38,170 nucleotides of DNA from a virus (taxonomy: Duplodnaviria > Caudoviricetes), in the IMG/VR virus record IMGVR_UViG_3300030392_000880, positions 1 through 38,170 of that record; one strand, given 5' to 3'. Both the position numbers and the translations under genes were made by a program. Positions 3,448-38,170 of this stretch are shown piece by piece. Below the pieces are notes generated by a model. The model was not told the origin of the DNA. It saw only the letters and a list, made by a program, of their open reading frames with translations, and made no database searches. Each line of letters opens with the position of its first letter. Position 1 is the first letter of the stretch.

Positions 3448-5897
3448 TGGCAAATGAATTTAAACACGTTACGGTAGGAACGGAAATAACACAAGCTGAA
3501 TATGAAGGAACTGCGGGTCACGTATTCAACTCTCAAGCTACCGGGGATATCATGTACGCATCATCCTCAAGTCAACTGACCCGATTAGGAATAGGTTCTA
3601 CAGGAGCAGTTCTAACTGTAACTGGTGGAGTTCCTGCTTGGGATACCACATGGACACCAACAGGACATTTAATTCCTGCGACAGATGATTCTTACGACCT
3701 TGGTTCAGCAAGTGCTGCATGGCAGGATTTATTTTTAGAAGGTGATATTACATTAACTGATGCAGGAACTATAGCTACTTCCGCAGGTGCATTAACAATT
3801 ACATCAGCGGCGGCCTCGACATGGTCTACCAGTGCAGGAGCATTGACTATTGACGGAGATGATGGGATTACCTTACAAACTACAGGGTCAGGAAACGTAA
3901 CTGTAGCCGAAATTTTAGATATTACTGATTCTACAGATTCATCTGATGCGTCTGGGGATACTGGTGCTTTGAGGACAGAGGGTGGAGCTAGCATAGCAAA
4001 AAAATTATATGTAGGTACGGACCTAGACGTAGACGGAACCGCAAACCTAGATGCTGTTGATATAGATGGTGCAATACAAATTGACAATACAATAACTGTA
4101 GGTGCTGACGACCAAGGCTACGACATTATATTTTATGGAGATGCGGCATCTGCAAACATGACATGGGATACAAGTGTTGATGATTTAATTCTTAATGGTG
4201 CGGCTAGAATAGTAATACCAGATGGACAACTTGTTCTTGGGAGTACAGCAGTTGGTTCAACAGCAGCAGAGTTAAATCTTTTAGATGGTTCAGCTAAATC
4301 TACATCATCTATTACATTAGCTGACGCTGATGCGTTTATTGTTATTGATGGAACTACTACCAAACAGATTCCTGCTTCCGATTTGTCAGCATATGTAACA
4401 GCAGAAGGAGCAATGAGTTCCTTTCAATTAGAAGATGATGATGGTACTGAAGTAACCATAAACAATGCTAATGAGATTAAGTTTATTGGTTCAGGTATAA
4501 CAACCAACTGGACTGATACAGACAACGGTACTGATGGCGACCCTTATGATATGACATTTACTGTAGATGCGGCACAGACAGGCATAACTTCTATTTATGC
4601 TACAGACTTGATTATGGGTGAGGACTCTCAAACTGCTATTGATTTTGGTACAGCTAATGAGATTGACTTCAAGGCAGATAATGCAGCAAGATTGACGCTC
4701 ACTTCGGGAGCATTGTATCCAGTTACTAACAATGAAATAGACTTAGGTACGAGTTCATTAGAATTTAAAGATGCCTTCTTTGACGGTACAGTAACAGCCG
4801 ATGCGTTTGCAGGTCCATTAACAGGCAATGTAACAGGTAATGCTTCTGGTACTGCGGCAACTGTTACAGGAGCAACACAAAGTGCTATTACAGCGGTAGG
4901 AACTCTTGGGTCTATTGATATTGATGGTGGTGCTATTGACGGTGTAACACTAGGAACAAATTCAGCAGTAACCCAAGCAGTTATTGACAATATAAATATT
5001 AACGGAACAACCATAGGTCATACTTCAGATACTGATTTACTTACTCTTACAAGTGCAAACCTAGCGGTAGCAGGAGATATAGAGGTAAGTGGGAGTGTCG
5101 AGGTAGCAACTATTGACTACACAGATGGTGACAATGCTCTAACAATAGCAGATGGTGGTGGAGTTACGTTTGCTCAAGACACTACGTTTAGTGGAATCAT
5201 AGATATCACAGACGCTACGGATTCTTCCGATGCTTCTGGAGATACGGGAGCTTTACGAACAGAAGGAGGAGCAAGTATAGCCAAGAAACTATACGTGGGT
5301 ACAGACTTGGATGTAGATGGTACAGCCGAACTTGATAATATAACTATAGGTGGAGCGCAAGGCTCTGATGGGCAGGTATTAACTTCTACTGGTAGTGCAG
5401 TAGCATGGGAAGATGCAGCTAGTGGTGGTGGCATAACCCAAGCATCTACGTGGCTAATGACAAGTGACTTTGACCCTAGTAGTGATGGAGTGATAACAGC
5501 AAACCTTTCAGAAAAAAGTAGTGCCGCTGGAAGATGGGGAAAGATAGGTTCTTCTATGACAGAAAGTAGTGGAGTATTTACTTTTCCTGCAACCGGTATA
5601 TGGATGGTAACTTGGGGGATTTCTGTATATGGTTCAGGAAGCGACACAGCAATGCTTTTTACTATGCAAACTAGCAATGATGGTTTTAGTAGTGATTCTA
5701 ATGATACAGGCAGAATCCTACTGGCTAAATCTGCAAACGAAGAAACTTCAGGTTATGCTTCACTCATAATGGATGTTACGAATACCAGTAATGACAAAAT
5801 TAGGTTTCATCAGGGATATGTCGCGGCTAATATAACGATAGCAGGAGCAGTTAATAACAATACATGGTTTGAATTTGTAAGATTAGGAGATACATAG
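3447..5897 (+). CDS. Tail fibre protein
   Basis: 816 aa rich in G/T/D/A; TGALRTEGGASIAKKLYVG and GSDGQVLTSTG..W fibre motifs; C-terminal GVFTFPATGIW C1q-like tip. Confidence 0.85.
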   Translation: MANEFKHVTVGTEITQAEYEGTAGHVFNSQATGDIMYASSSSQLTRLGIGSTGAVLTVTGGVPAWDTTWTPTGHLIPATDDSYDLGSASAAWQDLFLEGDITLTDAGTIATSAGALTITSAAASTWSTSAGALTIDGDDGITLQTTGSGNVTVAEILDITDSTDSSDASGDTGALRTEGGASIAKKLYVGTDLDVDGTANLDAVDIDGAIQIDNTITVGADDQGYDIIFYGDAASANMTWDTSVDDLILNGAARIVIPDGQLVLGSTAVGSTAAELNLLDGSAKSTSSITLADADAFIVIDGTTTKQIPASDLSAYVTAEGAMSSFQLEDDDGTEVTINNANEIKFIGSGITTNWTDTDNGTDGDPYDMTFTVDAAQTGITSIYATDLIMGEDSQTAIDFGTANEIDFKADNAARLTLTSGALYPVTNNEIDLGTSSLEFKDAFFDGTVTADAFAGPLTGNVTGNASGTAATVTGATQSAITAVGTLGSIDIDGGAIDGVTLGTNSAVTQAVIDNININGTTIGHTSDTDLLTLTSANLAVAGDIEVSGSVEVATIDYTDGDNALTIADGGGVTFAQDTTFSGIIDITDATDSSDASGDTGALRTEGGASIAKKLYVGTDLDVDGTAELDNITIGGAQGSDGQVLTSTGSAVAWEDAASGGGITQASTWLMTSDFDPSSDGVITANLSEKSSAAGRWGKIGSSMTESSGVFTFPATGIWMVTWGISVYGSGSDTAMLFTMQTSNDGFSSDSNDTGRILLAKSANEETSGYASLIMDVTNTSNDKIRFHQGYVAANITIAGAVNNNTWFEFVRLGDT
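3933..4043 (+). repeat. Fibre internal repeat 1 (37 aa)
   Basis: TDSSDASGDTGALRTEGGASIAKKLYVGTDLDVDGTA, identical in protein to 5217-5327. Confidence 0.95.
5217..5327 (+). repeat. Fibre internal repeat 2 (37 aa)
   Basis: Same peptide as 3933-4043 with 25 of 37 codons synonymously different. Confidence 0.95.
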
Positions 5898-8769: not shown

Positions 8770-8994
8770 ATGCAAGACTATATACTTATTCTAGTTGGCT
8801 TTGTGTCGGCAACAATCTTCATACTCAATCTAGTACACCGAGCATGGTTACAGAAGGCTGTGATACGTGAGATTGAGGAGCTTTCAATGGATGTCCATAG
8901 ATATACAAGTTTGGCTAGTACGATATATCAGAGAGTACCTTGCGTACATTGTGGAAGATATCCACCTCCGCCTCTAAGAGATGTAAACAAATAA
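8770..8994 (+). CDS. Small N-terminal-TM protein with CxxC
   Basis: YILILVGFVSATIFILNLV; PCVHCG. Confidence 0.6.
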   Translation: MQDYILILVGFVSATIFILNLVHRAWLQKAVIREIEELSMDVHRYTSLASTIYQRVPCVHCGRYPPPPLRDVNK

Positions 8995-9064
8995 TAACAA
9001 ATCCCTGCTAGGTGGAAATGCTTCATAAAAACACCTAACAGGGAATAAAAGGAATAAAACTATA
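8995..9064 (-). ncRNA. Candidate anti-RBS small RNA ending in a terminator-like hairpin
   Basis: 12-bp stem CCCUGUUAGGUG/CACCUAGCAGGG (U-G wobble only on - strand), U-rich tail, 5' single-stranded UUUUAUUCCUU; own extended -10 promoter. Confidence 0.5.
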
Positions 9065-9070
9065 GAATTT

Positions 9071-9079
9071 ATTATAGCA
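9071..9079 (-). promoter_or_regulatory. Extended -10 promoter TGCTATAAT
   Basis: Perfect TGnTATAAT with no downstream ORF before the hairpin. Confidence 0.55.
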
Positions 9080-11171: not shown

Positions 11172-11374
11172 TATTGCCCTCCTTTTAGGGTGTTGATTTC
11201 TGATTCCCATTTCTCGAAATTGTCTTTGTATAGTCCTGATGGACCACCATCACCACGTCTCCACCTACGAACAGTTTCGATACTTGTACATCCTACCCTA
11301 TCTTGTATTTGTCTCATCGTAATACCACTTTTTACTAAAATGTCTATACGTTCAGCCCAACTTATATCATTCAT
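11171..11374 (-). CDS. Cro/XRE-like helix-turn-helix regulator
   Basis: GITMRQIQDRVGCTSIETVRRWRRGDGGP; AGGAGGT Shine-Dalgarno before ATG 11374. Confidence 0.8.
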   Translation of the reverse strand: MNDISWAERIDILVKSGITMRQIQDRVGCTSIETVRRWRRGDGGPSGLYKDNFEKWESEINTLKGGQ

Positions 11375-11775: not shown

Positions 11776-13898
11776 AATTTATTATCTGTCACATCTTGTT
11801 GCGTTTCAGAAACACCACCATCACCCCCCTTAAAGGGGGTGAGTGGTTCATTGTGTGTTTTTGTCACAGGTGAAACGCTTTGTGAAACGTCTTTAGGTAT
11901 ATAATATTGACTACTGTCATTATGTTTAATTTCGTTTCTGTCTAACATTCTTTTTAGTGTCGTTCTTATAGTATTGTTGGGAACATTTGTTTGTTCCGAT
12001 ATTTCAGCAGGTGTTAATTGCATACCATTTTTTAAGAGTGCTAATATCTGTTGCTTGACAGGTAATTTTGTAACCAAATTTTCATATTCTGCTAATTCAG
12101 CTTCTGAGTAATGAATAGAAGTTGTATTGCCATTATCGTCTGCTTCAAATTTTGCAGTCAATCCAATCGGATTTAATAAACCATTTGTTCTGTTACCTTT
12201 TTTGTGAAATAATCCTATAGTAGAAAAGTTTTCACCTTGTTCTTGTTGTTTTTCAATTTTCCATATATTTCGTGCATAGTTCCAATAAAATATAGAACCA
12301 AAAGGTGTATTGTCATCACCACTTTTTTTGGTGTGTGTAATACCAATACTAGAGATATCTAGCATATTCATACATTCAAAATAAATCCTCGCTGCCTCAG
12401 CGTCATTTACATCTTGCCCTGCACTTGCAACTATTGAATCGACAAGAACAAGTTCTACCATGTTTTCAGAAATATCTCGTTGAATATCATCCATATGGTC
12501 CACTAACGAACCTGCCATTTTTTTATACATGATTGGATAATCAGGTTCTGGTTTATTTGCACCATAAAGTAGAGCATTTTTTACATAATAAAATTCATCT
12601 TTACTTGATTCCCAATCTAACATAAGAACAGCTTTTGGATTACTTTCTACCCATGTACCTGGGATTATAGTATGCCCTAAAGCAACACTTAGTAATATTG
12701 CTATACCAACTGTTGATTTACCTTCACCACCCATACCCATTATCAAACTAGGTTGTTTTACCCTAGCAAATGGCCTTAACATCCAAGGAGATGTACTCTC
12801 TGGAGTGTAATTCCTCATATCAATAGCATCAGACCTAGGGTCGATACTATCAGCTACAAGTTTTGCCACCTGGTCTATTGCTACCAACCAATTCTGTTGC
12901 TCTCTATCGTTTAGTTGTCGAATAAGACCTGCTCTTGCAGAAGATGACAGTAAATTTATTCTTACTGGTCCATAAAATTGTGGATTCGATTCTATTCCAA
13001 TACGTATCCAACAATGGATTCCATCATTCTTCATATTTATTCTACTGGCTTCAATAGAGAATCCTGCATCTAACCAACGAAATACTCTTTTATTCGCTAT
13101 ATTCACATCTACTATTGGATTTTCTAATCCTTGACCTTGATATGTAGTATCGGATATTTGATATCTCCATGCACTTTTTACAATGTTTAGTAATTCAGTC
13201 TCTTTCATTGGTGGAGAACATCTCTCTCTAAACTGTTGCATTATTGCAGTAGTCATATCTTCTGCGATTCCCTTTTTTCTAAAATAACCAGCTAACCTAA
13301 TCCCTGCATCATTTCTTTGACCTTCAGGTACACCATCAGTAAGGTACTCGGTTACCCATGTGGGTTGCTCTGATACTGTTTTGTTCTCTGAAACGTCTCT
13401 TTGACGATTCTGTGGGTCGTATGACCTAAAGAACCGTGATAGTGAATCCCATGTTGAAACATCTTTGTCTTTATGAACAGAATATTTTTGTCCGTCTATC
13501 TCACTAGGAGGTGCAACGATATATCCACCTTCATTTCGTATGTCTAGTTTTTCAAGAAATCCTGCACCCTGTGGATAAATAGGATTGTATAACAAAATGT
13601 AATGATAACCTTTTATAGTTTTATGTGTTAGAGTTTCTGGTCTGTCTGTTATGCCACTGTCTGTTAAAGCTTTCATTGCTTCTTTTCCATCAATATCAAT
13701 TACTGATATCCCAGACTGTTGACCTGTAGCTATCCCAATATTGTATTTAGGATTCTGTTTCCACCATTTAGTTATCTGTTCTATGTCGGTGGTGGCACTT
13801 TTAAAACCATCAGAGGTTGCAGGTGCTTTAGCATTTTCTTTTAGGGGAAAAACTCTCCACCCTTTTTTTGCGTATTTTATAGCTTCATTTAACATCAT
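11754..13898 (-). CDS. Bifunctional primase-polymerase + PriCT + RepA/AAA_25-type helicase + winged HTH
   Basis: GWRVFPL..K.P, NIGIATG..VIDID, GYHY, DIRNEGGYIVAPPS (PrimPol); GQRND (PriCT); GMGGEGKST Walker A; LVLVDS Walker B; TPAEISEQT..TIRTTLKRM wHTH. Confidence 0.93.
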   Translation of the reverse strand: MMLNEAIKYAKKGWRVFPLKENAKAPATSDGFKSATTDIEQITKWWKQNPKYNIGIATGQQSGISVIDIDGKEAMKALTDSGITDRPETLTHKTIKGYHYILLYNPIYPQGAGFLEKLDIRNEGGYIVAPPSEIDGQKYSVHKDKDVSTWDSLSRFFRSYDPQNRQRDVSENKTVSEQPTWVTEYLTDGVPEGQRNDAGIRLAGYFRKKGIAEDMTTAIMQQFRERCSPPMKETELLNIVKSAWRYQISDTTYQGQGLENPIVDVNIANKRVFRWLDAGFSIEASRINMKNDGIHCWIRIGIESNPQFYGPVRINLLSSSARAGLIRQLNDREQQNWLVAIDQVAKLVADSIDPRSDAIDMRNYTPESTSPWMLRPFARVKQPSLIMGMGGEGKSTVGIAILLSVALGHTIIPGTWVESNPKAVLMLDWESSKDEFYYVKNALLYGANKPEPDYPIMYKKMAGSLVDHMDDIQRDISENMVELVLVDSIVASAGQDVNDAEAARIYFECMNMLDISSIGITHTKKSGDDNTPFGSIFYWNYARNIWKIEKQQEQGENFSTIGLFHKKGNRTNGLLNPIGLTAKFEADDNGNTTSIHYSEAELAEYENLVTKLPVKQQILALLKNGMQLTPAEISEQTNVPNNTIRTTLKRMLDRNEIKHNDSSQYYIPKDVSQSVSPVTKTHNEPLTPFKGGDGGVSETQQDVTDNKLWNPKKW
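11787..11890. other. Candidate replication origin inside the 3' end of the primase-helicase gene
   Basis: Palindrome TCACCCCC-CTTAAA-GGGGGTGA flanked by GTTTCA/TGAAAC and TGTCAC repeats. Confidence 0.5.
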
Positions 13899-13916
13899 AA
13901 TCCTTTCTTAAATAAA

Positions 13917-14010
13917 TGTGGTAACACAAGAAGATGACTACGAGATGAAACGTAGAATTGACAGGGAATTTTTTATTTACCAGGAAGGATTCCCTACTTG
14001 CGTTACCACA
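13917..14010 (-). ncRNA. Three-way-junction RNA with antisense loops (C4/CI-like architecture)
   Basis: 14-bp closing stem UGUGGUAACGCAAG/CUUGUGUUACCACA (G-U on - strand), hairpins AGGGAAU/AUUCCCU and CUACG/CGUAG; intergenic. Confidence 0.7.
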
Positions 14011-14019
14011 ATAAATAGT

Positions 14020-14046: not shown

Positions 14047-14451
14047 CTATTTTGCTTTTATTTCTATGTATCTTTTTTCTTGTACTTTAGCATTTCTGAT
14101 AATATCTCCCACATCACCAGAAGAAGTTATGTACTTGTTAGCTTCTCTTACGCTAACTTCTTTCTTTTCTTTTGTAACAACTAACTTATCAAATTCTTCA
14201 TCAGAAATAAACTCTTTTATGGGTTCAAGAAATGATGGTTCATAGACAGGCGTTCTCTGTATCCGAACATTATATTCATTTGACCAAAGTTTCTTATGGT
14301 CCTTACCAATACGTTTGTCGATTTCATCATCTAGCATTTGCCTTCGGTATCGTAGAACATTTTGTTCCTCTCGTACCTGTTTAGCTAATGCAATGACTGT
14401 TTCGTCATCCATTCCTGGTAAATCCATTTGTAATGTATGCCAATTATCCAT
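14047..14451 (-). CDS. Hypothetical protein
   Basis: 134 aa, AAAGGA Shine-Dalgarno. Confidence 0.75.
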   Translation of the reverse strand: MDNWHTLQMDLPGMDDETVIALAKQVREEQNVLRYRRQMLDDEIDKRIGKDHKKLWSNEYNVRIQRTPVYEPSFLEPIKEFISDEEFDKLVVTKEKKEVSVREANKYITSSGDVGDIIRNAKVQEKRYIEIKAK

Positions 14452-14479
14452 AATTATTAATTCCTTTCTTTATTTGAAA

Positions 14480-14551
14480 TGGTGGAGGTGGTGGGAATCG
14501 AACCCACGTTAGTAGAAAATAAGGAAAATCTACTGTATACCAATCACCCCC
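14480..14551 (-). ncRNA. Mini-tmRNA: tRNA-like domain only
   Basis: GGGGGUG-AUUGGUAUAC-AGUAGA-UUUUCCUUAUUU-UCUACU-AAC-GUGGG-UUCGAUU-CCCAC-CACCUCC-ACCA: 7-bp acceptor stem with G3-U70, discriminator A, encoded CCA, canonical T arm, no D stem, 3-nt linker. Confidence 0.85.
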
Positions 14552-14558
14552 ATTGTTA

Positions 14559-15017
14559 TTATTTATTATCTAAAAAATGTTCATCACATGGTTCATAGAT
14601 ATTTAATCTATAACTTTTTGTTAATCCCTTTTGACTAGAAATAAGACATCCTAGACGTTCCATACGATTAATTCGTTCTTTAGTCCAACTTACCCCTAAT
14701 CCAGATTTTGATGCTATTTCTTTTATTTTCATAACTGATGTTCTACCATCAAGTGATTCTCCAGCAAGTATCATTAATATTGCTAAATCAACTGGGAGTT
14801 TTTCCTTAATTTGTTCCCAGTGTTTACTAGCCGATGAGGAAGCTCTAATCATCAACCCTAATGATTCATAGTGATTTCTTTGATGTATTTCGTGATTAAG
14901 TTTTATTACTTCCTTTTCTAATTCTGTAACTCTTTTCTTCAAGTCTCGTACCCAACTTTTAGTTTGGATATAGATTTGTGTTATATCGTGTTCAGTTTGT
15001 GTTATTCTGTCCGTCAT
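14559..15017 (-). CDS. Coiled-coil plus C-terminal winged-helix DNA-binding protein
   Basis: MKIKEIASKSGLGVSWTKERINRMERLGCL...KSYRL wHTH pattern. Confidence 0.65.
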   Translation of the reverse strand: MTDRITQTEHDITQIYIQTKSWVRDLKKRVTELEKEVIKLNHEIHQRNHYESLGLMIRASSSASKHWEQIKEKLPVDLAILMILAGESLDGRTSVMKIKEIASKSGLGVSWTKERINRMERLGCLISSQKGLTKSYRLNIYEPCDEHFLDNK

Positions 15018-15174: not shown

Positions 15175-15380
15175 TATTCCTCCTTTACACAATCTGATAT
15201 ATCTATTTCTAAATCACCAGCTTCCTGAACCAACATTTCTTCAGGAAGGGTTTCTAAATATTCCTGTACTGCTAGTTGAATCAAAGCTACTGTCTGTGTA
15301 GATATTCCTTTACGTTCTATAGCATAATTTGTGTCGTCAAGTATCCTATCCACAAGTGATAATCTATCGTATATACTCAT
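15174..15380 (-). CDS. Hypothetical protein
   Basis: AGGAG Shine-Dalgarno, TGATG coupling. Confidence 0.7.
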   Translation of the reverse strand: MSIYDRLSLVDRILDDTNYAIERKGISTQTVALIQLAVQEYLETLPEEMLVQEAGDLEIDISDCVKEE

Positions 15381-15625
15381 CAGTTATTCTCCTGTTCTTT
15401 CTTTGTTTTCTCGCAAGATGTTTGACATTCTATGCACATATAACCTTCTACAGTTACATGATATGTTTTACCGGATAGAACGAGTTCTGCATCAGCATCA
15501 CTAGGTATTCGATTGACGAATAATCCAGTACCAAACGAGGTATCTTTTCCACAAGACGTACAACGATTTCCTAAATCTATGTCTGGAAAGTTGAAGTCCA
15601 TAGTTATGTCTAAATGTTTACCCAT
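15380..15625 (-). CDS. Small CxxC...CxxC zinc-binding protein
   Basis: RCTSCGKDTSFG..FVNRIP...YMCIECQ. Confidence 0.75.
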   Translation of the reverse strand: MGKHLDITMDFNFPDIDLGNRCTSCGKDTSFGTGLFVNRIPSDADAELVLSGKTYHVTVEGYMCIECQTSCEKTKKEQENN

Positions 15626-15846
15626 CAGTTATTCTCCTTTTGCATTTTGTTAAATTCTTTTTTTGCTCTTGCTATCTGATTGTCAAAATGCACGTTACTC
15701 ATTTCGTTATGAATAAACGCTAACTTTTCGTCAGATAAAGTAGCAACATATATTGGATTTTGTTTTCTCCACGATTTGATAAAAGTTTCTAGATGTGGAA
15801 AGAATTTATCCTTTGGATACCCTGTTATAGGGTCTAATTTACTCAT
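15625..15846 (-). CDS. Hypothetical protein
   Basis: AGGAG Shine-Dalgarno, TAATG coupling. Confidence 0.7.
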   Translation of the reverse strand: MSKLDPITGYPKDKFFPHLETFIKSWRKQNPIYVATLSDEKLAFIHNEMSNVHFDNQIARAKKEFNKMQKENN

Positions 15847-16034
15847 TACTTATTCTCCTGTTCGATTTCGTTTATTTCATATTCAACATTTAACAACTTG
15901 GTATCAACTCCATGAGTGAGTTGAGTGAGTTCGTTCCAAGTAGAATTATCTTGTAGCATTTCGTTAGCTTCCTCTTCACTGTTTGCTTCTATTTCTTCGT
16001 GCCAAGTAGCTACAAATATTACTTCATATCTCAT
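15846..16034 (-). CDS. Small acidic phage protein (IEANSEEEA motif)
   Basis: YEV...EIEANSEEEA pattern common in small phage early proteins; coupled. Confidence 0.7.
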   Translation of the reverse strand: MRYEVIFVATWHEEIEANSEEEANEMLQDNSTWNELTQLTHGVDTKLLNVEYEINEIEQENK

Positions 16035-16273
16035 TATTTATTCTCCTGTTCTTCTAGTACATCAAACGAAAACGTATACGTTATGTAGTCGTATTCGTAA
16101 GGTGCAATTAGTTTTTCTCCTGTTTTATGCCATATGACAGGACACTTGTCTAGCCATGTTTCAAACTCTTCTGGTATGTTATATCCAGGTCTGTCCATTG
16201 GTACGTTGCTATTCTCCAGTTCCTTATTTTGTTTCTTCAGTTCATCATTTTCTTTTTGTAAATCTTTATCCAC
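16034..16273 (-). CDS. Hypothetical protein (GTG start)
   Basis: AAGGAG Shine-Dalgarno; FETWLDKCPVIW. Confidence 0.7.
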   Translation of the reverse strand: MDKDLQKENDELKKQNKELENSNVPMDRPGYNIPEEFETWLDKCPVIWHKTGEKLIAPYEYDYITYTFSFDVLEEQENK

Positions 16274-16394
16274 CGTTATTCTCCTTGTATATTTCGTTGC
16301 CCATTAATCCACTCATCATCTCTATAAATGCAACTTTTGAGTCTGCATCGTCTAGGTGGTTCAAGATATATTGAATTTCTTTTGTGTAAATCAT
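16266..16394 (-). CDS. Hypothetical 42-aa protein MIYTKEIQYILNHLDD... (not in ORF track)
   Basis: GGGAG Shine-Dalgarno, ATGA overlap; its end supplies the next gene's RBS. Confidence 0.6.
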   Translation of the reverse strand: MIYTKEIQYILNHLDDADSKVAFIEMMSGLMGNEIYKENNGG

Positions 16395-16582
16395 CTGTTG
16401 TTCTCCCTGTGTTTATATTCCATTTCATCTCGATATTCTATGTAACATTCAATGCACATAGACTTTACATTTGGTGGTAATGAAACACCACCTACGAATC
16501 TGTCATCAGTAGCTAGTATCTTTTTATCAACAAACTCACTACACGTCTGACATTTTATCTTTATCATCTTTAAAACTTTCAT
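16391..16582 (-). CDS. Small CxxC...CxxC zinc-binding protein
   Basis: KCQTCS...MCIECY; AGGAAGGA Shine-Dalgarno. Confidence 0.7.
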   Translation of the reverse strand: MKVLKMIKIKCQTCSEFVDKKILATDDRFVGGVSLPPNVKSMCIECYIEYRDEMEYKHRENNR

Positions 16583-16727
16583 CTTTATTTTCCTTCCTGG
16601 AAATGTTAGTTGTTACGTCTTTGTTATCTGGTAATAATATTGGTTTTATTATTGCATCAATCATCATATCCATAGCTTTCGCATACTGTTTCATAACTTG
16701 TTCATCGTTATTATTTATTTCTTTCAT
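16539..16727 (-). CDS. Hypothetical protein
   Basis: AAGGT Shine-Dalgarno; 62 aa. Confidence 0.5.
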   Translation of the reverse strand: MKEINNNDEQVMKQYAKAMDMMIDAIIKPILLPDNKDVTTNISRKENKDESFKDDKDKMSDV

Positions 16728-17230: not shown

Positions 17231-17259
17231 ATTATACCACAACCACAACAACTTGTCAA
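17231..17259 (-). promoter_or_regulatory. Consensus sigma70 promoter TTGACA-17-TATAAT with TG extension
   Basis: TTGACAagttgttgtggttgtggTATAAT. Confidence 0.9.
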
Positions 17260-17292: not shown

Positions 17293-17469
17293 TTACAAAT
17301 AACCGACAAAGTATCCATCTTCATCAGTTATAGAAATTCTTGCTTTGTTTGGGTTCTTGTCAATCTTTACAACTTTGTAAATCCAATCATCATCATTGTT
17401 TAATTTTGATGTAAGCTCAATTGCTTTGGATATTGAAAAGATTGTTTCTATATGTTTTATAATTTGCAT
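17293..17469 (-). CDS. Hypothetical 58-aa protein MQIIKHIETIFSISKAIEL...DEDGYFVGYL (not in ORF track)
   Basis: TAAGGA Shine-Dalgarno; open frame fills the gap. Confidence 0.75.
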   Translation of the reverse strand: MQIIKHIETIFSISKAIELTSKLNNDDDWIYKVVKIDKNPNKARISITDEDGYFVGYL

Positions 17470-17470
17470 T

Positions 17471-17653
17471 TTATTTTTTCCTTATTATATGGTCATGTAA
17501 CTCCAGGTATTCTTTCATACCTTCAATTGCATCTAATCTATCAGTTAGGCAGGGAACACCAGAATCATTGATGTTACATTCAAGTCCTAGCTTAATTCCT
17601 TTCCCTAATTCAGCTAATCTTTTTAAGTCATTATCTGTTAGAGTATTACTCAT
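17471..17653 (-). CDS. Hypothetical protein (MSNTLTDNDL...)
   Basis: GGAG Shine-Dalgarno before ATG 17653. Confidence 0.7.
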   Translation of the reverse strand: MSNTLTDNDLKRLAELGKGIKLGLECNINDSGVPCLTDRLDAIEGMKEYLELHDHIIRKK

Positions 17654-17864
17654 CGTTATTCTCCAATTCATTTATCCATGTTTTCCATATTTCTTCTTCC
17701 GTTACCGTTCTTCCCAGTTGTTTTTCTACCAATCTCCATTGCTTTAGTAACTTCTTTTCTTTCTGGTATGCTTGACGATTTGAAATTTCCCCATCTTCAT
17801 GTAAATTTTCGGGGGATAATTCTCCGACAAGGAACTCAAACTTCTGTCGTTGTTCTTTGTTCAT
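17646..17864 (-). CDS. Hypothetical phage protein (LSPENLHEDGE motif)
   Basis: 72 aa, TAAGGA Shine-Dalgarno; its RBS is complementary to the mini-tmRNA loop. Confidence 0.75.
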   Translation of the reverse strand: MNKEQRQKFEFLVGELSPENLHEDGEISNRQAYQKEKKLLKQWRLVEKQLGRTVTEEEIWKTWINELENNDE

Positions 17865-17884
17865 AATTATTTTCCTTATTTTTG

Positions 17885-18452: not shown

Positions 18453-18668
18453 TTATTCCTCATTATTAACTTTATTTTTCCAATTTTTTAACTGTTCTTT
18501 TTGATTTTCTAATTCTTTACAATATTCATTAACATTGAATGAACGTTTTCCAGTGAAAAAATCAATATGATATCTACCATCAGAAATATTTTTAATCAGC
18601 ATCTTTACGTATTCTATTTCTTTATCAATTGCTTGATTAAAATGTTTATGTTTATCTGAAATTTGCAT
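18453..18668 (-). CDS. Hypothetical early protein
   Basis: TAAGGA Shine-Dalgarno. Confidence 0.7.
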   Translation of the reverse strand: MQISDKHKHFNQAIDKEIEYVKMLIKNISDGRYHIDFFTGKRSFNVNEYCKELENQKEQLKNWKNKVNNEE

Positions 18669-18679
18669 TTTTTTATTCC

Positions 18680-19057
18680 TTATTTCACTAATTCTTCATA
18701 CTTTAATTTTTCAAATTCTTTTATATCTTCTTTACTGATAGATTTTTTCAAGAATTTTTTATGTTTTATTCCTAATGCTTTCCCTTTTAAGTTTGTAATT
18801 TTTCCATACAAAACATCGTCATAATCTATTTTTCTTTTATTCGATTGACTTCCTTCTATCATGTTTTGAATTAAAAATAGTTTAGATGCTATTGGAACAC
18901 TTGCGTTATATTTTCGATTCCATGAATAATTCCATGTATCCCTATATAACTTTTCTTCTTTTTGTATATCCCTATACAATGAACGTATTAAGTCATCGCT
19001 ATCAGGTAATTTACCAAATAACTTATTTATTAATTTTTCCTGTTCAGATGTAATCAT
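18680..19057 (-). CDS. Hypothetical early protein
   Basis: 125 aa, AAGGGAG Shine-Dalgarno. Confidence 0.75.
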   Translation of the reverse strand: MITSEQEKLINKLFGKLPDSDDLIRSLYRDIQKEEKLYRDTWNYSWNRKYNASVPIASKLFLIQNMIEGSQSNKRKIDYDDVLYGKITNLKGKALGIKHKKFLKKSISKEDIKEFEKLKYEELVK

Positions 19058-19084
19058 CTTTTAATTTCTCCCTTATTTTTTTTT

Positions 19085-19245: not shown

Positions 19246-19521
19246 CTATTTTTTAGTTATCGAAATAATTTTCCAACTTTTTTTATCCAGTTCAATAGCA
19301 CGTTTTATTAAACCTATATGTTGTCGTGTTGTTACACTTCTAAAACCTGTACATTCTTCTATTTTATCTATGGAATAATCCCAAATATACTTATCGTAAA
19401 TATTGGCAATTTTTAATCCATAACTAAAAAGACTTCCATCTCTAACAGTTAAGTTTTGACTGTTCATAGATATTCCCCAATCATTTTTGAGAAATTTTTG
19501 TATGACTTCTTGATTTGTCAT
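19246..19521 (-). CDS. Hypothetical early phage protein
   Basis: MTNQEVIQKFL...LFSYGLKIA...SVTTRQH pattern recurring in phage early genes; TAAGGA Shine-Dalgarno. Confidence 0.75.
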   Translation of the reverse strand: MTNQEVIQKFLKNDWGISMNSQNLTVRDGSLFSYGLKIANIYDKYIWDYSIDKIEECTGFRSVTTRQHIGLIKRAIELDKKSWKIISITKK

Positions 19522-19549
19522 TTTATTTAATCCTTATTTTTTTATTTAT

Positions 19550-20116: not shown

Positions 20117-20365
20117 TTATTCACTTCTAAAATATCTATCAGGAAAACATTCAATTTCTGGAGCTATTTTCATAAAACTTAATAACTCTTTTATTCTTTT
20201 TTCATAATATAGACTGAAGCCGTTATCGTATTTATCTAGATTTTTTTTGTTTTCATTTTCCATCAATCTTTCGTATTTATCCCGGAGGTTTTGATTGAGA
20301 AAAAATTCTCTTGTTATTTGACCCTCAATTACTTTAGTTAAATTTAATTTATTTAAATCTGACAT
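20117..20365 (-). CDS. Hypothetical first early gene
   Basis: 82 aa, TAAGGA Shine-Dalgarno. Confidence 0.7.
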   Translation of the reverse strand: MSDLNKLNLTKVIEGQITREFFLNQNLRDKYERLMENENKKNLDKYDNGFSLYYEKRIKELLSFMKIAPEIECFPDRYFRSE

Positions 20366-21032
20366 AATATTTATAATCCTTATTTATTTATTAGTTAATA
20401 ATTTATATTAATAATAGTACGTGTTATTGTTGCTATTGTATATAGTTGTCAAGTCTTTTTTAAACTATTTTTAAAATGGGTAAGTATTCCTTAAATGATT
20501 AATTGATGAGTTAAGCAGTAGTGCACCACATAAGGAAATCATAAGACAATGAATAAGCCCATCCAATTGTTAAGCAGTATGTAACCACCATTTTATTTAA
20601 TGGGTGTCTTATTTAATAATCCTCCCGCGTGAGTAAAAAAAATAATTAATTAGCTCATAGTTAAATGATGCGATTTTTTAGGGATTATATATTTAATGTT
20701 CATCGTCAATCATTCCCAGATATTTTAGCTCATATGTTCTATTTTTAAGGGTATAATCACCAGTAACGCCGATACACGAAGGGAGGTATATATATATAGG
20801 GGTACACCCTTCTTGCGCTGAGTATGATATATTAGTTTAGGTGTTTCAGTAGCGTTTCTTAAGTGTGACAAGTGTTTCACTGAGTATAGAATCTACCGTT
20901 TCACCTATTACCCCCCCCTTTTAAGGGGGGAATATGAAACGAAACATTAACTAAGTTAATTAGGTTAATATTAAGTTAATTAAGTTAAGTTAAAAAAAGA
21001 AAATAGATAAAGAAAAAAGGATATGTTGATAT
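20366..21032. promoter_or_regulatory. Divergent non-coding control region (early/late promoters, probable packaging and origin signals)
   Basis: No ORFs; strand switch point; TTAAGCAGTA direct repeat (20511, 20570), TA run, CCCCCCTT-TT-AAGGGGGG palindrome, GTTTCA repeats, TAAGTTAAT repeats. Confidence 0.7.
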
Positions 21033-37008: not shown

Positions 37009-38170
37009 TGCCAGCAACTATTTCAACAACTTCAACGGTAGATACTATACTTCCTGAGTACGCAAGATTTATTGGTGCTTGGGTAGGTTCTTTTTCTACT
37101 ACAACAAATATTGGTGCAGGAACAAGTGTAATATCTACAGGATTAACTGATAGAGGATTTACAACAGACGATACACTTAATGACTTTTATGTCAGATGCA
37201 CAAGTGGTAATAACGATAATACCATTAGAAGAATAAGTGATTTTACAGGTTCTTCAGGAACTATTACAATAACAGGAACAAATTTATCAGCAGAATCAGG
37301 GTCGACAACATTTGAACTTTATAGATATGACCCGAATTTACTAATAGAAACCTTAAATGCTGGTTCACAAAACTCATTTCCTGCTCTTTATGTAGAAGTC
37401 AATGACAGAAATGTAACATTGGCACAGTCACAACAGTTATATGCAAGACCAACATCTATACCGGCAGGGTACGTAAGACAGTTGTCTATCGAGCCACGTA
37501 TGGATGCTAAATCCTATGCAAACAATATTGTAGGAACACTTAATTGTGATTTTGAAAATAGTACGATAAGTACAGATTGGACAGCATCAAATATTACTTT
37601 AGCAGCAGAAGAAGAAACTACAGGACCTGATAACTTTGTAGTATACGCAGGAACACAATCAGGTAAGTGTACAGTTTCCGCTAGTTCTACTGCAACTCTG
37701 CTTATGACAGTTCCGTCAGGAACTAACTATGTAGGAGAAGAAATCAATGTCGGAATATGGGTATATAGCAGAACTGCCAGTAGAGTTAGTGCGGCTATTC
37801 AGTTAGATTCTGGTAGCGTCAGTTTAGGTTCTACACATAGTGGTCTTGGTTGGGAAAGACTAACACATACATTAGTAGCAGATGGAGTCAGTTCCAGTAT
37901 CAAGGTAGGTGTGTCCGCAACTAGTGGTACTGCATTTGTATTCTATGCTGATGAGATAATAACTACAGCAGGTCAGTCAGAAATACCAAGAATCCCTGTA
38001 CGAAAATTATTTGCATGGAAAGAAGAAGGTTCTTCTATAAGATTATTAGAAGGGTTTGCAGGAGATAGAAATTTATTGATTACAGGTATGGGGATGATAG
38101 ATTTTTCTCAGGTAGATACTACAGGTTCAAACACCATAGAACTAAACCAGTCTCAGAGACGTATGTTATA
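37008..38170 (+). CDS. Putative head-to-tail adaptor, N-terminal part (runs off the end; not in ORF track)
   Basis: ATG 37008 coupled to upstream TAA, open to the window end, in frame with ORF 4-915. Confidence 0.7.
   Translation, partial: MPATISTTSTVDTILPEYARFIGAWVGSFSTTTNIGAGTSVISTGLTDRGFTTDDTLNDFYVRCTSGNNDNTIRRISDFTGSSGTITITGTNLSAESGSTTFELYRYDPNLLIETLNAGSQNSFPALYVEVNDRNVTLAQSQQLYARPTSIPAGYVRQLSIEPRMDAKSYANNIVGTLNCDFENSTISTDWTASNITLAAEEETTGPDNFVVYAGTQSGKCTVSASSTATLLMTVPSGTNYVGEEINVGIWVYSRTASRVSAAIQLDSGSVSLGSTHSGLGWERLTHTLVADGVSSSIKVGVSATSGTAFVFYADEIITTAGQSEIPRIPVRKLFAWKEEGSSIRLLEGFAGDRNLLITGMGMIDFSQVDTTGSNTIELNQSQRRML
37416..38170. repeat. Terminal direct repeat, copy B
   Basis: Begins acattggcacagtcacaac and ends gtatgttata, matching 1-755; implies a circular map of 37,415 bp. 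Confidence 0.97.

Follow-up and report, generated by a model that had tools for sequence, protein, structure and literature searches.

Transfer-messenger RNA (tmRNA) reduced to its tRNA-like domain (TLD) was previously described in mycobacteriophage DS6A, and a similar molecule was noted to inhibit tmRNA (PMC4131195, PMC11915505). In this work we analyzed a window of 38,170 nt (IMG/VR record IMGVR_UViG_3300030392_000880, positions 1 to 38,170), a near-complete 38-kb record of a marine phage with terminase, capsid, and prim-pol genes, which carries a 72-nt element of this kind on the minus strand (14480-14551, hereafter mini-tmRNA). The DS6A RNA and the mini-tmRNA share the G3-U70 acceptor stem, the stemless D-loop, the single P2 arm, the T arm, the lack of a tag frame, and the position inside a phage operon. 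However, the D-loop of the DS6A RNA ends in UCGAC and its two-part P2 has a 4-nt apical loop, whereas the window copy has no G19, and its 6-bp P2 is capped by 12 nt of loop complementary to ribosome-binding sites (RBSs). The DS6A RNA (L466:678-757; JN698994 region) is unannotated in the GenBank record, and its P2, an internal loop plus a small hairpin, recurs in many IMG/VR copies. The organellar tmRNAs devoid of a coding sequence also consist of a TLD (~65 nt) without message; these are organellar and paired with SmpB, and the available part of the source reports no antisense role for them (PMC11915505).

With regard to the loop, RNase P generates the 77-nt C4 RNA of P1/P7, which occludes an RBS with its loops (PMC5320573). 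The window RNA shares with C4 the length of ~75 nt, the maturation by RNase P from a longer transcript, which is predicted here, and a loop complementary to RBS regions of its own phage, which was found in our tests. It differs from C4 in its tmRNA-derived fold with a CCA end and in having one loop and many predicted targets that share a cassette; neither the three-stem fold nor an Rfam C4 match was found in it, and no ant/icd operon was seen in the window phage. The CI RNA of P4 and the CA RNA of N15 are further antisense RNAs of the C4 kind. In T4, early mRNAs are shut off via a shared Shine-Dalgarno (SD) motif by RegB (PMC3014915). The shut-off proposed below would likewise act on early genes through a common SD motif, but RegB is a protein nuclease, and the reader of the motif in the window phage would be an RNA. 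The first-pass annotation of this locus knew of no described example, and for the scaffold DS6A provides one. The scaffold is therefore of a known kind, while the anti-RBS loop on it and the operon-end RNAs of related phages are new. A literature search, which did not cover most subscription journals, returned no description of an antisense RNA derived from tmRNA and none of the RNAs of this phage group.

A tmRNA reduced to its tRNA-like domain

The mini-tmRNA was confirmed to be a tmRNA reduced to its TLD. From sequence and fold, its acceptor stem has 7 bp including G3-U70, and discriminator A and an encoded CCA are present. The stem encloses a stemless 10-nt D-loop, a 12-nt loop on a stem of 6 bp, a linker of 3 nt, and a T arm of 5 bp, and the fold z-score was -2.6. 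This agrees in fold and coordinates with the first-pass annotation, and the tmRNA identity given there also holds, since the Rfam model RF00023 matched the element with 51 bits (E 2e-17; cut-off 47 bits), although ARAGORN made no call. The pseudoknots and the tag reading frame of full tmRNA are absent, and 19 nt stand in for 306 positions of RF00023. As in DS6A, both tmRNA ends are joined via a short hairpin in a phage-borne RNA within the range of 59-85 nt. Of the features of tRNA-Ala, neither a D stem nor a 7-nt anticodon loop was found. No annotated phage record matched at least 80% of the mini-tmRNA length. In other records, open reading frames (ORFs) were called into or across it (proteins P0008, P0009, P0034, and P0035), so the RNA gene is hidden in annotations.

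The last 27 nt of the mini-tmRNA are identical to many bacterial tmRNA 3' ends, as would be the case for an attP remnant left by integration into a host tmRNA gene. We consider this origin extremely unlikely, since the element has both of its ends, paired with each other, and a core conserved throughout, and no integrase was found among the 52 ORFs scanned with PHROGs or the 17 scanned with Pfam.

The conservation was evaluated among strains. L185 and L186 share all 69 core bases at 14483-14551 with the window, against a divergence of 18% at the four-fold sites of their primase; the probability of such identity was 1e-6 for the core and 0.009 for the stem-loop, which argues that the mini-tmRNA core is under selection. 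Contigs from other runs, on which the wider strain comparison rests, have the same mini-tmRNA but differ in the upstream context and in the CCA/TCA end. Positions 14480-14482 read CCA in the window and TCA in L185, L186, and the runs X5 and X20, and CCA is encoded in just 31 of the 80 family copies among the matches listed. Between the upstream ORF and the mini-tmRNA, L185 has an insert of ~125 nt closed by an 8-bp stem (L185:3002-3123) with no Rfam match above noise, and run X20 has a different 82-nt replacement at this place.

A first pattern scan of IMG/VR gave at least 80 distinct mini-tmRNA copies including the window (at least 119 loci), and a second one gave 82 more (94 loci), amounting to at least ~160 in total. 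G3-U70 was fixed by the patterns, and the pairs left free covary, being paired in 79-80 of the 80 copies among the matches listed. ARAGORN recognized one of 54 family copies. A pattern scan for near copies yielded 45 loci and no mini-tmRNA, and single-protein locus scans in viral contigs (primase; winged helix-turn-helix alignment) yielded nothing.

The covariation of these stems, the DS6A precedent with the reported inhibition of tmRNA, and the synthesis of poly-Ala without template by TLD plus SmpB (PMC3929946, PMC2481249) favor an ordinary TLD-only tmRNA. Such an RNA would be alanylated and would compete with the tmRNA of the host for SmpB/EF-Tu or enter stalled ribosomes without tagging; its loop would be a neutral spacer whose sequence arose via inversion or local copying of an A-rich stretch. 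We regard this explanation as unlikely, though quite conceivable. G19 is required for SmpB binding in E. coli, where G19C abolishes binding (PMC8363625), and the window copy lacks its equivalent: in place of the SmpB-binding elbow (G19-A20 with G333-A334) it has AC/AA. The GA/GA elbow was present in 33 of the 68 parsed copies and a G within the last two D-loop bases in 61, and the window belongs to the seven copies without one. The first-pass annotation had taken recognition by SmpB as established; for the window copy it is not, because the D-loop lacks G19, and from its sequence SmpB binding is likely weak or lost. Moreover, an ordinary TLD-only tmRNA leaves unexplained the analogous anti-RBS loops that related phages carry at a fixed place.

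Complementarity of the loop to early-gene start regions

As shown in Table 1, the mini-tmRNA complements 7 of the 28 early-strand start regions by 9-14 nt, compared with a shuffle mean of 0.5 (P 0.001), and six of the seven belong to the first gene block. The 14-, 11-, and 10-nt RBS matches reported in the first-pass annotation were all exact. Four further start regions (9-10 nt) had been overlooked there, and an RBS cassette common to several genes describes the target better than any single gene. In a sliding test, the mini-tmRNA ranked first among all 72-nt segments of the 12-kb early strand, and the next peak was a poly-U tract near 20650-20704. Outside start regions, the minus strand contained two loop matches of 10-11 nt (16220-16230 and 2467-2476). 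In the shuffle check that had been suggested for the 14-nt match, a match to any of 50 upstream regions was infrequent (0.7% of loop shuffles; 4.2% with UCCU kept), and one anywhere in the genome was found in 3.7%. The multi-target count (7 of 28 vs. 0.5 expected) is thus a stronger signal than the single 14-mer.

The opening of the loop costs 0.1-2.3 kcal/mol. The apical loops of the family are mostly 3-6 nt, whereas that of the window is 12 nt and 92% pyrimidine, the most pyrimidine-rich of the 12 loops of at least 8 nt out of 81 family loops among the matches listed. The mini-tmRNA matched only 0-2 start regions in five genomes of related phages.

Table 1. Coordinates of the mini-tmRNA, its predicted targets, and related features; positions are those of the window unless a contig is named.
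Feature	Position	Strand	Remark
TLD-only mini-tmRNA gene	14480..14551	-	72 nt; sequence, fold, Rfam match
10-nt D-loop	14535..14544	-	ends AC, not GA; G19 equivalent missing
Predicted antisense guide: 12-nt pyrimidine-rich loop plus closing pair	14516..14529	-	
Leader of ORF 14047-14451	14452..14479	-	6 bp with loop here; 14 bp (two G.U) in L185/L186
RBS of ORF 16391-16582	16587..16595	-	9-nt complement
RBS of ORF 17293-17469	17476..17486	-	11-nt exact complement
RBS of ORF 17646-17864	17869..17882	-	14-nt exact complement; -13.5 kcal/mol
RBS of ORF 18453-18668	18676..18685	-	10-nt complement
RBS of ORF 18680-19057	19071..19079	-	9-nt complement
RBS of ORF 19246-19521	19531..19540	-	10-nt exact complement
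RBS of ORF 20117-20365	20377..20385	-	9-nt complement
Sigma-70-type promoter match	17231..17259	-	12/12 with TG extension; consensus match only
Window operon-end unit	8994..9079	-	U-rich tract, 13-bp hairpin 9044-9002; extended -10 by eye
G001 operon-end RNA	L352 near 11294 (11250-11345)	+	5/19-20 start regions
G002 operon-end RNA	L354 near 3577 (3520-3610)	-	4-5/25 start regions
G003 operon-end RNA	L357 near 13526 (13455-13570)	+	7/24 start regions
L365 operon-end RNA	L365 near 15865 (15820-15910)	+	8/25 start regions
Small-RNA candidate, operon end	L367:19100-19161	+	

Candidate operon-end hairpin RNAs in related phages

Phages with ~70% terminase identity or 30-42% primase identity to the window phage were regarded as kin. 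RF00023 matched none of 21 kin records, most of them fragments, and 3 further records were not searched. In G001, G002, G003, and L365, the top window of the sliding test was an 11-14-bp hairpin with a U tract behind it, located where the same operon ends, and the loop or 5' tract of this RNA complements the repeated start motif of its own genome (Table 1). The G001 RNA surfaced blind in the test, directly after the last early-strand ORF, and L365 has two loops in succession, each of which matches a repeated leader motif of its own. The beginning of the same RNA, with 3 start-region matches, was found in G004, where the contig end cuts it. Altogether, the top window was a discrete hairpin RNA with at least 5 start regions in five of the six genomes of the group, while 3 of 94 unrelated loci reached 5 and none went higher. 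With units chosen by position alone, own-genome matches beat permuted ones (P 2/720). A hairpin census counted 5 of 131 kin hairpins vs. 2 of 751 in the background (P 0.001), and P was 0.025 after removal of the window's own hairpin and a duplicate. The kin operon-end RNAs had no Rfam match. An extended -10 motif was seen by eye in some of the candidates.

The repeated cassettes could also act at the level of DNA or protein, with the cassette as the binding site of a phage protein and its inverted copies as operators or titrating sites. G003 carries three cassette copies at 11-nt spacing, helix-turn-helix-like proteins (below cut-off) are encoded in the operon, and the cassettes coincide with gene-swapping joints. 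This role is nevertheless very improbable, as the copies occur only on the antisense side (sense matches 0-1), where they lie in the unpaired loops or tracts of terminator-type hairpins, and the window copy lies inside a tRNA-like RNA.

Another alternative is a lock in cis: as long as the operon mRNA is unprocessed, the loop would pair with the RBS of the following gene, and tRNA-like processing would release this RBS. In L185/L186, the loop pairs 14/14 with the next leader at -13.6 (P 0.001; 0.011 with UCCU kept), which supports either such a lock or a local inverted copy, and the G003-type pre-primase hairpin has an 11-bp partner in the primase leader. We still judge a cis lock improbable: the window's own leader pairs by 6 bp only (-6.3), the X20 variant pairs only partly, the tRNA-like fold is favored by 8 kcal/mol over the nested alternative, and the RNAs of L365 and G001 are not directly followed by a gene on that strand. 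Family-wide cis pairing with the next leader was rejected, being found in 6 of the 80 copies among the matches listed.

The pre-primase hairpin of the G003 group is a second hairpin of 11 bp, located 40 nt before the primase start (L357:7361-7399 (+); also in L151, L154, L157, and L358). Its loop is U-rich, with matches of 11 nt to the primase leader and of 12-16 nt to other start regions, and one compensated stem change was observed, in L358.

Proposed mode of action and genomic setting

The leftward strand from ~20400 to 9137 encodes small early genes first and replication genes after them. On this strand, the mini-tmRNA sits between the conserved ORF 14559-15017 and ORF 14047-14451. The promoter match at 17259 lies 2.7 kb before the mini-tmRNA and heads the block containing it, with no terminator-like site in between, and six of the seven loop-matched genes are upstream of this match. 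No family was assigned to the protein downstream of the mini-tmRNA beyond a DUF7173 lead.

Since the loop complements a shared early RBS motif and the hairpin RNAs of kin match their own motifs, an antisense off-switch of early genes appears likely. We give about an even chance to the reading that the tmRNA head, matured by the host, was reused in a C4-like manner to carry an antisense guide that targets the RBS cassette of the early genes. A little short of even stands the broader proposal that this marine phage clade controls swappable early genes via cassette-antisense small RNAs, and that the present lineage moved the guide into a tmRNA head without the SmpB elbow.

Both RNase P and AlaRS act on heads of the tmRNA type. 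The mini-tmRNA would be co-transcribed within the leftward operon and freed by an RNase P cut and 3' trimming, as a tRNA is. The tRNA-like fold would stabilize the freed RNA, perhaps with the help of EF-Tu after alanylation. The loop could then pair with the A-rich SD cassette and decrease 30S loading on the first gene block. The outcome would be the shut-off of early genes, or the damping of a superinfecting relative. In strain X7, the cassette is kept and the gene behind it is apparently swapped (loose end at 17871, read from loose letters). As gene swapping takes place at these cassettes, a guide directed at the cassette would control whichever genes are present.

A number of results weigh against an antisense guide. 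The signal was absent in 54 other mini-tmRNA loci, as an own-locus anti-RBS test gave P<=0.05 in 3 of 55, including the window and one stem match off the SD. In separate counts, at most 2 start regions were matched in 49 loci, and the maximum in 68 further loci was 4 of 104. Copies of TLD-like type bearing TCCT were 6 of 89 pattern matches, with TCCT in stems. The loop-target duplexes are weak, at -9 to -13.5 kcal/mol before target opening. With G.U allowed, kin without a mini-tmRNA have equally good sites (-13.7 in G002, -12.9 in G003); kin lacking it also possess RBSs with 9-10-nt loop matches, and of the three start regions among 232 that reached -13, one each was in the window, G002, and L186. 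Cassette repetition raises the match counts, two of which include the same start call twice, and a fraction of 0.2 was reached by 14 of 94 background loci. The conservation of the loop alone was not significant (P 0.09), and no loop variant of the mini-tmRNA was found in the lineage. One RNA-library contig spans the mini-tmRNA, but it extends past both flanks and may be DNA. The G001 RNA matched 7 start regions in G004 and 5 in its own genome, because both share a cassette. The window operon-end unit (RNA ~9065-8994), which is the positional counterpart of the kin RNAs, matched only 2 of 28 starts exactly (P 0.53), and therefore the strongest anti-RBS sequence of this lineage is the mini-tmRNA.

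A neutral loop, as an ordinary TLD-only tmRNA would have, gains further support here. Loop inversions by template switching are documented (PMC8794818) and could create the loop without selection; by eye, the reversed loop resembles the A-rich/GGA apical flanks of the family, and a single match among the ~120 loci tested could be an effect of selection among them. A family-wide anti-RBS role of mini-tmRNAs was rejected on the null own-locus tests. The antisense guide of the first-pass annotation thus fails as a property of the family, and it gains support inside this phage group, where the hairpin RNAs of kin match their own cassettes.

Several further features were observed in the window. A second repeated RBS cassette, with four 27-nt copies, lies at 15371-16300 (-), and in other strains gene-swapping joints are found there. 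With a one-base bulge allowed, the window operon-end unit may have the second cassette, that of the 15380-16273 block, as its target, which is a lead only, and its -10 motif is missing from the promoter-scan list. Before the primase gene, a three-way-junction RNA (window 13915-14011 (-), L186:1343-1436; z -8) has a loop with the conserved sequence CCUUCCU, for which the primase SD is a potential pairing partner, and one compensatory pair was seen between two strains. The antisense counts of this structure and of the L185 insert were not significant. The stretches 1-915 and ~37250-38170 are similar, non-identical copies of one gene stretch, which fits an overlap in a two-strain assembly. No host was assigned, as the 3' end of the mini-tmRNA is common to many phyla and the terminase relatives are less than 27% identical.

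Phage TLD-only tmRNAs are common, yet there is one published example, and they are assumed to be SmpB decoys. The window copy suggests a second fate for such RNAs, that of a stable carrier of an antisense guide, and the comparison uncovered unannotated small RNAs of phages whose loops track the RBS cassette of each genome. If the proposal is true, mosaic early regions would gain an off-switch that is independent of their gene content, and the mini-tmRNA would be a natural tRNA-scaffolded, host-matured antisense RNA with multiple targets.
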